12,529 nucleotides of DNA from UHGV virus genome UHGV-1994978; one strand, 5' to 3'. Source of the stretch: a virus. The position numbers and the translations under genes are program-made. Under the pieces are notes generated by a model. It ran no database searches, had not been told where the DNA came from, and was given only the letters and a program-made list of their open reading frames with translations. Numbering within the stretch: position 1 is the stretch's first letter; each line of letters starts with the position of its first letter. This document shows, one piece after another, positions 1-12,529 of the stretch.

Positions 1-489
1 GTGCAGGACAGGATTGAAGAAATAGAAAAAGAAATTATCAATGCTCAAACTGTAAGAGAGATACCTAAATTTGATTTTGATATGGATGAAGTACTTGATC
101 CAATGAACATAGAGCTACGAGCGAAAGTGCGAAAACAGCTTAGGTTAGTACTTAAAGCAGTGAAATACTGGATGTTCGATAAGCGTATTTTTATCCAATT
201 GGAATACTTCAATGATGTACTTTCACACATGCTTGTAATTGATAATAAACGTGGCGGTGGAGATGTAATATATGAAATGTCTATTGAAGAAAGAAAGGGT
301 GAACGAATCTATACAGTTCATGAAAATGGTCATGCAGTTTTCATTGCATCAGTAACTATCGGCACAGATATATGGTCATTAGCTTTAAGCCGCACACGTA
401 CAATTGATAGCATTGGCAATTACCTAAGCCTCCTTGCTCGTGAAGGTTTTGAGATCTTTGTGAACGAAGATCAAATTGATTGGTTTTAG
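1..489 (+). CDS. hypothetical phage protein; frame is open at the window start, so the true 5' end may lie upstream
   Basis: 162-codon ORF from the track, stop at 487-489, followed by a terminator hairpin; no recognisable motifs. Confidence 0.5.
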   Translation: MQDRIEEIEKEIINAQTVREIPKFDFDMDEVLDPMNIELRAKVRKQLRLVLKAVKYWMFDKRIFIQLEYFNDVLSHMLVIDNKRGGGDVIYEMSIEERKGERIYTVHENGHAVFIASVTIGTDIWSLALSRTRTIDSIGNYLSLLAREGFEIFVNEDQIDWF

Positions 490-568
490 TATTGTGAGAG
501 TACCTTACTTTCAATAAGTATGAAAATTCTTTGAAGAACGTAGTTTTTACATTTTAAACTTTATTTTT

Positions 569-598
569 ACCTCGCAGGAGAGATTCTGCGAGGTTTTT
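569..598 (+). terminator. rho-independent terminator
   Basis: ACCTCGCAG (569-577) / CTGCGAGGT (586-594) stem with 8-nt loop, then TTTTT (594-598), about 80 nt after the stop of ORF 1..489. Confidence 0.6.
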
Positions 599-717
599 CC
601 ATGTATGGTAATGCAATGAGGTGAGGCGTGGCTTGGGGGGCGTATAGAGCGTTACAGGAAGGATTTGCGTTAAGTGTTAGTTTGATGTGCATATCTGAGT
701 ATATTTTCCTATTATCT

Positions 718-746
718 TTGACCAGTCCTCGGGAATAATATATAAT
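718..746 (+). promoter_or_regulatory. sigma70-type promoter, TTGACC -17 bp- TATAAT
   Basis: -35 TTGACC at 718-723, 17-bp spacer, perfect -10 TATAAT at 741-746, about 90 nt upstream of ORF 836. Confidence 0.55.
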
Positions 747-835
747 GGCTTCACGCCCTTAATAAAGGCTAGGCAGACAAAAGAGATATATAAATCTTTT
801 CGCTACTGCCGATATCAAGTAGGAGCAAGTCCAAA

Positions 836-1192
836 ATGACACTCAAACATAATGAAACACATATTTATTATTCCAATGATTGTGCCGTAGAACAACAAGA
901 TAAAGAAATCTGGATCGACCAGAATTTAGTATATAGCTGCTGTAAAGGCGATGAAGTAGAGTATACAGAAGGTAATAAGTCGGACTCTCCATTCTATGGT
1001 CAAGAGGCTTTACAAACTATGTATTATACTGACCGTGGAAATGTTCAGTATAATAATGAAGATGGGAGTTTTTACTTTCGCCTTGATGATGGGAATATGA
1101 ATACATACATAGATGGACAACTCCAGATTGATGATCCTAACGGTGACTATGTAGAATTCATTGAGTTCGCAAATAGTGTAATGTCTAAGTAA
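836..1192 (+). CDS. highly acidic small hypothetical protein (118 aa)
   Basis: ORF with AGGAG at 821-825 upstream of ATG 836; roughly 23 Asp/Glu against 7 Lys/Arg by eye; sits downstream of the consensus promoter. Confidence 0.6.
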   Translation: MTLKHNETHIYYSNDCAVEQQDKEIWIDQNLVYSCCKGDEVEYTEGNKSDSPFYGQEALQTMYYTDRGNVQYNNEDGSFYFRLDDGNMNTYIDGQLQIDDPNGDYVEFIEFANSVMSK

Positions 1193-1205
1193 GAAAATTT
1201 ATAAA

Positions 1206-1248
1206 CGAAGGTGCTAACCTTCGACGGTCATCATATATGACCGATTTT
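1206..1248 (+). terminator. tandem hairpins, putative terminator
   Basis: CGAAGGT/ACCTTCG stem (1206-1223) and CGGTCA/TGACCG stem (1225-1243) followed by ATTTT; just after stop of ORF 836..1192. Confidence 0.4.
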
Positions 1249-1292
1249 AAGTGAGATACCATAAATACTCCTATAACAGATAGGAGAGATTT

Positions 1293-1466
1293 ATGAATTG
1301 GATATACAAAATAATCTTTGAAATCATTGCTACGGCAATCTATATGTTCGTACTATTTCCATGTTGGATAGTACTGTGCATCTTTTTTATGTTACTAACA
1401 GTATTAGCACTACCTTTGAAAATTCCAACCATAAATAAAATGGTTATCAAGTTTTTGGAACGATAA
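1293..1466 (+). CDS. small hydrophobic membrane protein (57 aa), not in the ORF track because it is under 60 aa
   Basis: ATG 1293 preceded by AGGAGAG; my translation MNWIYKIIFEIIATAIYMFVLFPCWIVLCIFFMLLTVLALPLKIPTINKMVIKFLER; almost entirely hydrophobic. Confidence 0.45.
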   Translation: MNWIYKIIFEIIATAIYMFVLFPCWIVLCIFFMLLTVLALPLKIPTINKMVIKFLER

Positions 1467-1484
1467 AAAATAACATGGTATAAT
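1455..1484 (+). promoter_or_regulatory. sigma70-type promoter with extended -10, TTGGAA -18 bp- TGgTATAAT
   Basis: -35 TTGGAA 1455-1460; TG at 1476-1477 and TATAAT 1479-1484; oriented toward the RHH and HNH genes. Confidence 0.5.
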
Positions 1485-10672: not shown

Positions 10673-10980
10673 ATTTTGATGAACATTATGGTGAACTAAC
10701 CAGTGAGATTAAACTCGATGGTAATACACCAGAGGCTAATAGTATGCCAATTCATAAATGCTTTCTTGGTAATAAGTTCAAGAAGGTACTAAAGAGTAAA
10801 CAGATTAATATCGAACATTTTATGAATGTTTGCTATGAGAAAAAACAAGATATAACGGACGGTTCAGTACTCACATGGTCACTACAAGGTGTCCAGATGG
10901 ATGTGTATGTAATCGAACACAAAAAACTATTCGTTAAGGGAAAACACTTTTGGGTGTATTGCGTGGGGATCATTGAATGA
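10669..10980 (+). CDS. hypothetical protein (103 aa)
   Basis: ATGA start/stop overlap with the upstream gene suggests translational coupling. Confidence 0.55.
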   Translation: MNFDEHYGELTSEIKLDGNTPEANSMPIHKCFLGNKFKKVLKSKQINIEHFMNVCYEKKQDITDGSVLTWSLQGVQMDVYVIEHKKLFVKGKHFWVYCVGIIE

Positions 10981-11270
10981 TTGGTGTAATAATTGATTTA
11001 ATTAAAACTGGAATGGACTTTTTCATCAAGAAGAAAACTGTAGAACAGGAAGTTCAAAAAAATAATGCTGAAGGGCAGATAGAAACGAACAAAGAAGAGA
11101 TTGAAAAGGTGACATTCCATTGGCGTAATGCTCTAGGATGTGTGCTCACCTTAATCATTCTATATAACTGGATCATAGTACCAGTACTTGATGCTTTTGG
11201 TATTGTGGTTATCCAAGTGCCGTTAGGTCAACTACTGCAAGTACTATTGATTATGGTTGGTGGAAGCTGA
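10977..11270 (+). CDS. hypothetical membrane protein with two C-terminal transmembrane segments (97 aa)
   Basis: ATGA overlap with the upstream gene; hydrophobic stretches LGCVLTLIILYNWIIVPVL and GIVVIQVPLGQLLQVLLIMVGG; strong terminator follows. Confidence 0.55.
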   Translation: MIGVIIDLIKTGMDFFIKKKTVEQEVQKNNAEGQIETNKEEIEKVTFHWRNALGCVLTLIILYNWIIVPVLDAFGIVVIQVPLGQLLQVLLIMVGGS

Positions 11271-11272
11271 GT

Positions 11273-11298
11273 AAGCCCCTTAAGGGGCTTTTCTTTTA
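11273..11298. terminator. rho-independent terminator between convergent transcription units
   Basis: AAGCCCCT / AGGGGCTT palindrome then TTCTTTTATT, directly after stop of 10977..11270. Confidence 0.7.
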
Positions 11299-11499
11299 TT
11301 CCCAAAAAATATTAGGTTCTCTACGTGGTTCATTTACTTCTGTTCTTTTAACCCTGGCTACTACTTCATTGGTTTTTTTGTCTACAATATCATATGTAAT
11401 TTCTTCAATTGAATCCTGAAAACCACTTTCTTTACGGTGTACATGATTCAATTCATAATCTTTTGTTGGATATTTTTTGTAGAATTCTGATTCAGTCAT
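11296..11499 (-). CDS. hypothetical protein (67 aa from ATG 11499; track extends to 11511)
   Basis: GGAGA five nt upstream of ATG 11499 on the minus strand; charged, no recognisable motif. Confidence 0.5.
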   Translation of the reverse strand: MTESEFYKKYPTKDYELNHVHRKESGFQDSIEEITYDIVDKKTNEVVARVKRTEVNEPRREPNIFWE

Positions 11500-11524
11500 G
11501 ACTATCTCCACTTATTATATATTA

Positions 11525-11773
11525 TTACTCACATTTCCAAATTGTATTTTGTACACCACTACCTTTAGGTAAATGGGGGTTCATGTTAGCACTATGAACA
11601 TATGTTGCATTTTCCTTTCCATACTGCTGACATGCTTCATTAGCTGTTTTTTGTAAACTATCCAAACCATACCAACCGTCAGACTGAATGCTAACAGTTT
11701 TACCATCATTATATTGTACTGCTGCACATCCCGTTAAAGCTAAAGGGATAAGAATCATAATTAGGCTTTTCAT
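11525..11773 (-). CDS. small secreted lipoprotein (82 aa)
   Basis: Signal peptide [16 protein letters not shown] with lipobox LTGC; AGGAA upstream; two further Cys in the mature part could form a disulfide. Confidence 0.7.
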
Positions 11774-11792
11774 TATTATTTCCTAAATACCC

Positions 11793-11807
11793 GTACACAA
11801 ACTGTAC
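11793..11807. promoter_or_regulatory. inverted repeat GTACA-N5-TGTAC in a divergent intergenic region, candidate operator
   Basis: Lies between a weak -10-like TAAATA (11784-11789) and the methyltransferase start codon. Confidence 0.3.
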
Positions 11808-11818
11808 AAGGGTATTTT

Positions 11819-12529
11819 ATGGCAAGAATTACAAAAAAGGAATCAGGATTACACATACAGGTGATGGATCTAGTCTACTCAGATAAAAAACTGACTCAAG
11901 ATGATAAAGAATTCATCTTCAATAACTACAAGGGTGATGGTATCGGTGCTACGGGTGCTTTCTTTACTCCCGAAATGCTCGCATGGGATTTCATACTTGA
12001 TGCTGGCTCTACTGGTGACTGTATTGAACTATGTGCCGGGATTGGTCGCCTTAGCTACTACCAGTACTTAAGGAATAAGCCAACGCATATTACATGTGTT
12101 GAACTGAATCGAGAGTACGTAATGATTGGCAAAAGGGTACTGCCAGAAGCTGAATGGATATGTGGGGATGCTCTCCAGTACTCACCAGACCGTTTCTATG
12201 GTGTTGCCTATGGCAATCCACCATTCGGGAAGATCAATACCTCAGAAGCGTACACCGGCCGTTATAAGGGCAGCGAATTTGAGTATAAGGTGATTGAACA
12301 TGCCAGTAACTTTTCCTCATATGGTGTATGGATAGTACCGCAAGGTTCAGCAGGGTTTCAGTACAGCGGCGTACATTTCTATGAGCGTAGAGAGTCACAG
12401 AAGTACAAGAAATTCGTTGATAGTACTGGATGGTCGTTTGAACCAGGCTGTGGGATCGATACGTCGATTTACCGTGAAGAATGGAATGGTACGAACGTCG
12501 TGTGTGAGGTGGTTACTGTTGAGTACTAA
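11819..12529 (+). CDS. N6-adenine DNA methyltransferase, gamma-type motif order, no partner restriction gene in the window
   Basis: GAFFTPE (motif X-like), ELCAGIGRL (motif I, SAM binding) and GNPPFG (motif IV, NPPF) in that order; about 100 aa follow as a possible target-recognition region. Confidence 0.75.

Follow-up and report, generated by a model that had tools for sequence, protein, structure and literature searches.

GTAC over-representation in a decayed Escherichia coli prophage as the core of a highly iterated palindrome found in two groups of enterobacterial phages

Introduction

Why a phage genome should be crowded with a short palindrome is the question raised by the viral genome UHGV-1994978, a stretch of 12,529 nucleotides that was analysed here at its full length and is called the window. 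Phage genomes are textbook cases of palindrome avoidance. In the window, however, GTAC appeared to be in excess, often as AGTAC or GTACT, and the sequence-only reading in which this was remarked upon offered two possible causes: a protected or modified site linked to a methyltransferase encoded in the window, or a codon-pair bias. The window is part of a decayed E. coli prophage that belongs to a low-GC (36–44 %) clade of lambda-like temperate siphophages of Enterobacterales, hereafter the clade. GTAC is in excess as the core of an often-repeated palindrome, cAGTACTg (the octamer CAGTACTG), and not as a result of codon bias. A restriction-type palindrome is thereby the most over-represented word in two unrelated enterobacterial phage groups, the clade and the jumbo phages related to RaK2. 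As to its role, the reading preferred here, with somewhat less than even confidence, is that the palindrome is a selected, cis-acting tag on duplex DNA that is read by a dimeric protein.

GTAC excess and codon usage in the window

GTAC occurs 127 times in the window. Three copies lie within an insertion sequence (IS, approximately positions 2855–4030, excluded below where stated) and 124 outside it, where 110–120 had been estimated by eye. Base composition predicts 44 copies and a first-order Markov model 48.4, while 200 dinucleotide-preserving shuffles of the window gave 48.3 ± 6.2 with a maximum of 68. The ratio of observed to expected (given as × throughout) is 2.9–3.2×, or 3.2× outside the IS, and places GTAC first of the 256 tetramers for over-representation; the suspicion that the window runs counter to the usual avoidance of palindromes by phages was well founded. 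The same is true of the preferred flanks, with AGTAC (n=67) and GTACT (n=61) each at 4.8×. The longer word AGTACT (n=33) reaches 8.2×, against 3.8 ± 1.9 copies in the shuffles (maximum 10), and CAGTAC (n=23) and GTACTG (n=24) stand at about 9×. These three are the most over-represented of the hexamers with at least eight copies, and CAGTACTG itself is found four times where about 0.1 copies are expected. CTAG is strongly depleted (7 versus 44). The highest density had been placed in the structural genes, and at 4–9 kb it does rise to 13.2 GTAC per kb, compared with about 8 in the left arm and about 10 at 9–12.5 kb; this regional difference is nevertheless modest and partly tracks GC content.

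Codon usage, codon-pair usage or amino-acid usage alone (GGT-ACT, AGT-ACT, GTA-CNN) is the simplest explanation of such an excess. It was examined in 20 coding sequences (CDS; 9,762 nt) taken from the list of open reading frames (ORFs) and from gene calls on identical contigs; 109 of the 124 sites outside the IS fall within genes. Permutation of synonymous codons within genes yields 62.2 ± 5.7 GTAC (z 8.2; maximum 79 in 1000 permutations), permutation of codon order 48.6 ± 6.3 (z 9.6), and a dicodon shuffle in which dinucleotides are also kept 92.7 ± 4.5 (z 3.6; maximum 103 in 200 shuffles). The observed 109 thus lies outside the codon-shuffled null that had been suggested as the decisive check. 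For AGTACT, with 27 copies in CDS, the same three nulls give 6.9 ± 2.3 (z 8.8), 3.8 (z 12.1) and 14.1 ± 2.5 (z 5.1), respectively. All three reading frames contribute to the GTAC excess (50/31/28 observed versus 27.7/20.5/13.9 expected), and the 1,586 nt of non-coding, non-IS DNA hold 15 GTAC where 4.9 are expected, an enrichment of about 3×.

Codon choice was further measured in 154 kb of pooled clade CDS, with gene calls in the related loci based on ORFs. Tyrosine is encoded by TAC in 58 % of cases after a codon ending in G and in 29 % otherwise (p = 8e-26), valine by GTA in 70 % before C and in 41 % otherwise (p = 8e-45), and serine by AGT in 74 % before ACN and in 27 % otherwise (p = 3e-80). 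For glutamine, the share of CAG is 82 % before TAC and 33 % before TAT. The odds ratios for these motif-conditional choices range from 3 to 9. Since codon choice depends on the completion of GTAC, and since intergenic DNA is equally enriched, codon preference is a consequence of the motif and not its cause; the palindrome overrides codon choice and some choices of amino acid.

Codon usage alone has some points in its favour: a second-order Markov model predicts 92 of the 127 sites, the dicodon shuffle comes within reach of the observed count, and GTA, ACT, AGT and GGT are favoured codons in clade CDS. However, all three codon-preserving nulls are exceeded, the choice of codon is conditional on the motif in every frame, the intergenic excess has no codons to explain it, and the tetramer explains the abundant trinucleotides better than the reverse. 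A codon-usage or codon-pair artefact was accordingly ruled out, and little credence can be given to the codon-pair bias proposed earlier, or to any other form of codon or amino-acid usage, as the sole cause. Words of the GGCGGTAC type were also considered as a signal and were rejected as merely Gly-Gly-Thr codon runs of tail proteins.

Shape and conservation of the palindrome

Over 1,748 clade sites, GTAC is preceded by C (1.7×) and A (1.6×) and followed by T (1.8×) and G (1.5×). AGTAC without a following T and GTACT without a preceding A are about equally frequent, although nearly every gene is encoded on the same strand. Such symmetry, in a genome transcribed nearly entirely in one direction, argues against a cause at the level of RNA or translation, and the symmetric flanks, c-A-GTAC-T-g, point to a dimeric reader of duplex DNA. 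The alternative flanked form TGTACA is not enriched (0.47 relative to the expectation from flanks). Single mismatches to CAGTACTG become rarer from the outer to the inner positions, with 277, 99, 70 and 35 variants in the clade and 428, 115, 62 and 31 in the jumbo phage K64-1.

Sites are also conserved above background. GTAC was retained more often than tetramers as a whole between the window and the related locus L008 (52 % versus 34 %), between L092 and L097 (63 % versus 43 %), L092 and L101 (60 % versus 42 %), L104 and L103 (47 % versus 34 %), and between the jumbo phages RaK2 and K64-1 (91 % versus 88 %), ranking 3rd to 22nd of approximately 200–255 tetramers in these five comparisons. The counts use both sequences of each pair, so that p-values derived from them are inflated; a one-sided count for the window and L008 gives 47 of 95 sites versus 34 %. 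Many sites are lineage-specific, which indicates that density is kept while individual sites turn over.

Distribution across the clade

The signal belongs to the element and not to its surroundings. In the E. coli AREA_C483 and 14EC007 records the prophage carries GTAC at 2–3.6× and AGTACT at about 10×, whereas IS elements, intron and adjoining chromosome in these records have GTAC at 0.3–0.9× and almost no AGTACT. Pooled host flanks (102 kb) contain 210 GTAC versus 398 expected (0.53×) and no CAGTACTG. The hosts are thus biased in the other direction, which excludes a mutation bias of host origin.

With the DUF8377 tail protein as query, 80 viral contigs were obtained, which fall into two groups. 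In the 23 contigs of 49–100 % identity and 36–44 % GC, GTAC stands at 2.0–3.4× without exception and AGTACT at 3.6–12× in 22, the remaining contig being L017 (1.6×). In the 57 lambdoid relatives that share the tail genes at 41–44 % identity and have a GC content of 47–55 %, GTAC is at 0.4–0.9× (0.61× pooled) and AGTACT mostly below 1× (0.33× pooled). The head and early halves of clade genomes carry the same signal. Prophages of Scandinavium, Buttiauxella, Pseudescherichia, Pluralibacter, Phytobacter, Serratia and Leclercia are also enriched, and in all seven genera the signal drops sharply at the junction between prophage and host. In total, the signal is seen in about 50 related loci, prophage or viral, that represent at least eight enterobacterial genera, with GTAC about every 100 bp and AGTACT about every 350 bp on average. 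Pooled over the clade, AGTACT reaches 8.4× and CAGTACTG 33×; among distant relatives (30–50 % protein identity) there are 56 copies of CAGTACTG versus 0.5 expected, more than 100×. The signal is kept across protein divergence down to about 45 % identity.

RaK2-type jumbo phages

A scan of viral contigs for clustered AGTACT gave at least 120 matches, so the motif-rich lineages described here are a lower bound. Among the matches listed is a piece of the Klebsiella jumbo phage vB_KleM_RaK2. RaK2, K64-1, 121Q and GAP32 are well-known jumbo phages and candidates for therapy. The whole genome of K64-1 was analysed (L244–L250), and RaK2 (positions 200001–250000, L243), 121Q (L251), GAP32 (L252), T4, T5 and JSE were covered in part. 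In the 50 kb of RaK2, GTAC is the top tetramer (464 versus 148 expected), with 250 AGTACT versus 16.8 and 94 CAGTACTG versus 0.4 (235×). The flanking preferences are those of the clade but stronger (C 3.0×, A 2.0×, T 2.2×, G 2.65×), and GTAC density is 8.4 per kb in coding and 11.9 per kb in non-coding DNA. K64-1 (346.6 kb, GC 31.7 %) contains 2514 GTAC versus 1006 expected, with 1.7–3.7× in all 20-kb bins, and 940 AGTACT versus 117. CAGTACTG is its most frequent octamer (242 versus 2.9; 83×), and the word TTCAGTACTGAA occurs 33 times where 0.04 copies are expected. E. coli phage 121Q and Cronobacter phage GAP32 are likewise enriched. The trait is absent from T4 (GTAC 0.35×, rank 252 of 256), T5 (0.72×; AGTACT 0 versus 4.8), JSE and Escherichia phage DCP80; in T4, T5, JSE and the host, GTAC ranks near the bottom.

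A local role is apparent for a minority of the jumbo-phage copies. In RaK2 and K64-1, approximately 21–30 copies of CAGTACTG occupy the spacers of sigma70-like early promoters with the arrangement TTGACA-N8-CAGTACTG-TATAAT, which also takes the form AGTACTTGACA-N8-CAGTACTG-TATAAT, in which a second GTAC abuts the −35 element. Examples are found at positions 27498, 28810, 34256 and 37686 of the RaK2 piece and at 215899–236792 of K64-1. In K64-1, 21 promoters have AGTACT (nearly always as CAGTACTG) directly upstream of the −10 element, and 55 have AGTAC abutting a −35-like TTG. These promoters are the ground for supposing that the palindrome is a transcription signal, a promoter or operator element, in general. 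Only some 10 % of the octamers and roughly 3 % of the AGTACT sites in K64-1 belong to such promoters, however, the arrangement was not found in the window or in six clade loci, and the window sites lie overwhelmingly within genes, so that transcription is a very improbable explanation of the whole.

The occurrence of one octamer in two lineages also bears on whether it is a neutral inherited signature, left by the mutation spectrum of a lineage or by a past host and without a present role. The genome-wide, roughly Poisson distribution of the signal would fit such a signature, as would the low GC content that makes the elements compositionally foreign to their hosts. The two lineages are, however, unrelated and replicate by different machinery. 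The jumbo phage encodes a polymerase of its own, no polymerase or primase could be recognised in the clade genes examined, most of them unannotated, and the prophages replicate with a host of opposite bias. Conservation above background in five comparisons, retention at 45 % protein identity and in at least eight host genera, and survival of the signal where sub-classes of sites have been purged (see below) all speak against a neutral origin, which we regard as quite improbable.

A mechanical property of the DNA is a further candidate. GTAC contains TA, the most deformable of the steps, and CAGTACTG has three pyrimidine-purine hinges, which might offer flexible points for gyrase or topoisomerase, for bending proteins or for packing AT-rich DNA tightly. 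A high AT content is common to the two motif-rich lineages (32–40 % GC) and the signal is symmetric and at the level of the duplex, as a mechanical role would have it. The specificity is, however, too sharp, with TGTACA, which is just as rich in hinges, not enriched and CAGTACTG at 33–235×; other AT-rich coliphages (T4, T5 and JSE) are depleted; and no periodicity of about 10.5 bp, or other helical phasing, was found among GTAC sites. A link to gyrase was pursued in the literature and dropped, as it yielded a remark on deformability only. A mechanical explanation is, on balance, distinctly unlikely.

The DCP80 record (PQ671644.1, L009; positions 1–25000 compared with the rest) joins a lambda-like structural module, running from terminase to a J-like tail tip and with Chi-related words on top, to T4-like genes (motA, and rIIA twice), and is possibly a chimeric assembly. 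Among the matches listed for clustered AGTACT are also the strand-asymmetric or CTAG-rich contigs L188, L205, L155 and L202, which appear to represent different phenomena. In L188 (a 278-kb contig) and L205 the excess is of CAGTAC on one strand (42 versus 3 GTACTG) with a recurrence of about 2 kb, and is probably due to a repeat family. K64-1 is enriched in the Chi word GCTGGTGG with an orientation bias, having 13 copies versus 3 of the complement and 0.8 expected.

Purging of GTAC-containing hexamers

Several sub-classes of the motif have been lost in a manner reminiscent of restriction. In the pooled clade, GGTACC occurs 4 times and CGTACG once, versus 23 expected for each; in K64-1, CGTACG is absent (25 expected) and GGTACC is not depleted (43 versus 25). 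The contig IMGVR_UViG_2847085930_000003 (L017/L109) has 8 AGTACT versus about 60 in other clade loci and stays enriched in GGTACT, AGTACA and AGTACC, a loss consistent with exposure to a ScaI/Eco255I-type system. In the viral contigs L103 and L106, CAGTAC is absent and GTACTG occurs 0–2 times, versus about 55 expected from sister genomes, with GTAC at about 2×; this looks like avoidance of a non-palindromic restriction target of the CAGTAC type. That GTAC hexamers are purged implies that the sites are exposed to restriction and not shielded from it. Persistence of the core enrichment in spite of the purging favours a real benefit or a drive over a site that is protected or modified.

The methyltransferase gene

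The product of the methyltransferase gene at the right end of the window (Table 1) matches the phrog_3820 family 'DNA methyltransferase' (E 9e-104). Its translation contains CAGIGRLS (S-adenosylmethionine-binding motif I) and GNPPFG (motif IV), the motifs by which an N6-adenine methyltransferase would be recognised; a DNA substrate and a specificity for GTAC are putative. No Pfam, NCBIfam or PDB sequence match was obtained for the protein, and its 1,340 homologues are named just 'methyltransferase' by the source databases, some with a weak match to PF05175, a small-methyltransferase domain that we take to be typical of rRNA and protein methyltransferases.

The gene sits at the right end of the prophage, in a slot whose cargo varies. 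Besides the window, about half of the clade loci carry it; four complete right ends (L118, L119, L121 and L122) lack it and retain the signature. K64-1 has no homologue of it, and a scan of clade loci brought up no further amino-methyltransferase motif IV. Phage JSE carries a homologue of 54 % identity, yet GTAC in JSE is at 0.57× and AGTACT occurs once versus 16 expected. Co-occurrence of the gene with the signal was therefore rejected, and the methyltransferase is accessory cargo, not the cause of the GTAC excess. Together with the purging of GTAC hexamers, this leaves no footing for the methyltransferase-linked protection or modification suggested by the sequence-only reading. Pressure for the motif also reshapes acquired genes: this one contains 12 GTAC in 711 bases in the window and 9–12 in the clade, versus 2 in the JSE homologue, and the additional copies arose through synonymous and F-to-Y changes.

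The slot follows a holin-like gene (window positions 11296–12529; L016 13133–14697; likewise in L118, L119, L121 and L122). Depending on the member, it holds the methyltransferase with a DUF2188 gene, a 429-aa P-loop (KAP-like) protein with methyltransferase remnants (as in L016), other cargo or nothing.

A subtler involvement of methylation would be a drive like that supposed for cyanobacterial HIP1 (highly iterated palindrome 1). A methyltransferase would mark GTAC or AGTACT, and a methylation-linked bias in mismatch repair or gene conversion would create and preserve the palindrome with no function at any one site. The analogy with HIP1 and its orphan methyltransferases (PMC4390886) lends this some appeal, as do the clustering of CAGTACTG variants at outer positions in both lineages, the presence of the window gene in half of the clade and a Dam-type enzyme (PF05869) in K64-1. 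The absence of the window-type enzyme from four complete right ends and K64-1, the want of another motif IV enzyme in the scanned loci, the depleted genome of JSE and the unprotected state of the purged hexamers all stand against it. N6-adenine methylation, moreover, yields no deamination-type mismatch on which a repair system could act. The footprint of directed repair was also sought and rejected, since tetramers one step away from GTAC show no depletion (GTAT 1.14, ATAC 0.93, GTGC 1.0, GCAC 1.09). Such a drive is considered unlikely, and no enzyme that could plausibly drive the motif and is common to both lineages was found.

A proposed selected tag on phage DNA

Sharp specificity, two-fold symmetry, retention at a cost and the lack of a shared driving enzyme together favour a selected tag. 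A motif that overrides codon and amino-acid choice and persists under restriction pressure implies that some process reads phage DNA at hundreds of positions. The palindrome, scattered roughly at random over the whole phage genome, would be maintained by selection and serve as a cis-acting mark on the DNA duplex; a protein of two-fold symmetry, presumably dimeric, would read the mark, which would set phage DNA apart from the motif-depleted host chromosome. We infer that the reader is a protein and that the benefit scales with the number of sites, possibly through protection, recruitment or DNA handling. In a more specific and somewhat more speculative form, CAGTACTG/GTAC may be a convergent 'phage-self' tag bound by a dimer, either of a conserved enterobacterial machine or of a small, unannotated phage protein such as the approximately 150-aa family described below, and conferring an advantage that scales with density (protection from nucleases or silencers, or recruitment of replication or topology enzymes) and outweighs the exposure to GTAC restriction.

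The ~150-aa family (20–32 % identity) includes the window gene that is cut by the IS, L007 2924–3445, members in L105 and L106, and K64-1 65206–65661; a second small family is adjacent to it (L103 1064–1504, K64-1 64772–65194). By tblastn, the clade and K64-1 otherwise have in common a GH24 lysozyme and short segments of tail fibre. Apart from the lysozyme and the neighbouring gene, the ~150-aa family is the sole one found common to both lineages and is a candidate for the reader. The two genes form a cassette of unannotated small proteins in some clade members and K64-1; the first of the two proteins is modelled as all-helical and has weak SANT/SLIDE-like matches.

Several observations weigh against a selected tag. 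No reader was found, and hardly any genes are common to the two lineages. Spacing of the sites is near-Poisson (coefficient of variation 1.09), giving no hint of an architecture; an evident local role, in promoter spacers, is confined to about 10 % of the K64-1 copies and is seen for none in the clade. It is difficult to see how weak selection could be sustained at hundreds of sites that are individually dispensable, and molecular drive could imitate selection, elevated conservation included. A search of open-access full text for an excess of GTAC, AGTACT or CAGTACTG in phages returned nothing relevant, and a published explanation may exist.

If a selected tag is the correct interpretation, the identity of its reader could reveal a new layer of the interaction between phage and host, be it self-marking, anti-silencing or the control of topology. 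The motif is, in addition, a simple signature for spotting these prophages and sharply delimits their boundaries in host genomes. The phages that carry it should be exceptionally sensitive to RsaI- and ScaI-type systems, which bears on the prediction of host range.

Features of the window

Proteins identical to those of the window are found in E. coli, on contigs that run on into mipA-yeaE-yeaD-gapA-msrB. In complete genomes the element sits between yeaG and mipA, has a large serine recombinase at its start and is interrupted by many IS elements and by a group II intron. Its phage genes include a lambda-type Nu1/gpA terminase, a portal, a protease-capsid fusion and a J-like tail tip, and it also encodes a GH24 lysozyme and a small SegE-like GIY-YIG gene. 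The phage collection contains no isolated phage that megablast could match to the window, and the closest matches to the tail tip are only 33 % identical.

Table 1. Positions of features in the 12,529-nt window
Feature	Positions	Strand	Remarks
Left arm, recombinase-proximal accessory genes	1–2854		22 GTAC, 6 AGTACT
CAGTACTG, copy 1 of 4	1941–1948		
Gene cut by the IS	2404–2853	+	Full length 156 aa (P0150); divergent ~150-aa family
IS3-family IS	2855–4030	+	orfA 2887–3150, orfB 3174–4007; HTH_Tnp_1, rve; GC 54 %
Right arm: tail tip, lysis and cargo genes	4031–12529		102 GTAC, 26 AGTACT; all frames and intergenic
CAGTACTG, copy 2 of 4	4435–4442		
22-N run	4702–4723		Interrupts 590-aa tail gene (4613–6392)
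CAGTACTG, copy 3 of 4	6986–6993		
CAGTACTG, copy 4 of 4	8364–8371		
Methyltransferase gene	11819–12529	+	236 aa; AGIG and NPPF motifs; phrog_3820

The left arm is collinear with the E. coli AREA_C483 prophage (L007) directly after the serine recombinase. The IS, whose three GTAC are spread over 1,176 bases, lies outside the signal. It joins the recombinase-proximal genes straight to the tail genes, so that this copy of the prophage is without head and packaging modules. The 22-N run is 7 bases longer than the matching stretch in L001, and the 590-aa tail gene looks frameshifted in the window as a result; the run is a masking artefact that has no bearing on the counts. In 31 of the 32 related loci compared, a 149-aa SegE-like GIY-YIG nuclease (window positions 9658–10107) separates the lysozyme from the gene that follows, and it behaves as a core gene, not as a sporadic homing element. 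GGAG, GAGG and CCTC stand at about 0.4× over the whole window.

Comparison with known systems

Restriction-site avoidance, the usual fate of such palindromes in phages, is recognisable in the depletion of GGTACC, CGTACG and CTAG and, in single lineages, of AGTACT or CAGTAC. GTAC itself behaves in the opposite way, and avoidance of the motif proper is confined to the sub-sites GGTACC and CGTACG.

Binding sites of known proteins were considered. The SlmA sites of E. coli (GTGAGTACTCAC) share an AGTACT centre with the motif. Binding by SlmA requires AGYRCT to be flanked by G1, T2 and a purine at position 3 (PMC3020112). Position 3 of the motif is enriched in C and depleted in G (0.67×; 0.29× in RaK2), positions 1 and 2 are without signal, and SlmA sites were rejected. 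The half-sites of LexA and TrpR, which we take to resemble TACTG/CAGTA and GTACT, respectively, were rejected as well, there being no preference for a downstream T and a strong depletion of CTAG.

Like Chi and the DNA uptake sequences and uptake signal sequences (DUS/USS), the palindrome is dense, imposed on coding sequence and apt to distinguish own from foreign DNA. Chi and DUS/USS are, however, asymmetric and orientation-biased and have known readers (RecBCD and the uptake machinery), whereas CAGTACTG is palindromic and marks the parasite instead of the host.

HIP1 (GCGATCGC) is the highly iterated palindrome of cyanobacteria (Elhai 2015, PMC4390886), and its one-mismatch variants concentrate at the outer bases (PMC4390886). 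It differs from the palindrome described here in several respects. The carriers of CAGTACTG are phage genomes within motif-depleted hosts, the motif is AT-centred and resides in low-GC DNA, sub-classes are purged as if restricted, and no putative cognate methyltransferase accompanies the palindrome wherever it is abundant. The likenesses are nevertheless extensive. Both are palindromes of 8 bp built around a palindromic core of 4 bp, and both exceed expectation by one to two orders of magnitude (CAGTACTG by 33–235×); both occur in genes, in all frames, and in intergenic DNA; and both are lineage-specific, with variants at the outer bases. The nearest known counterpart of the iterated palindrome in these phages is the cyanobacterial HIP1.

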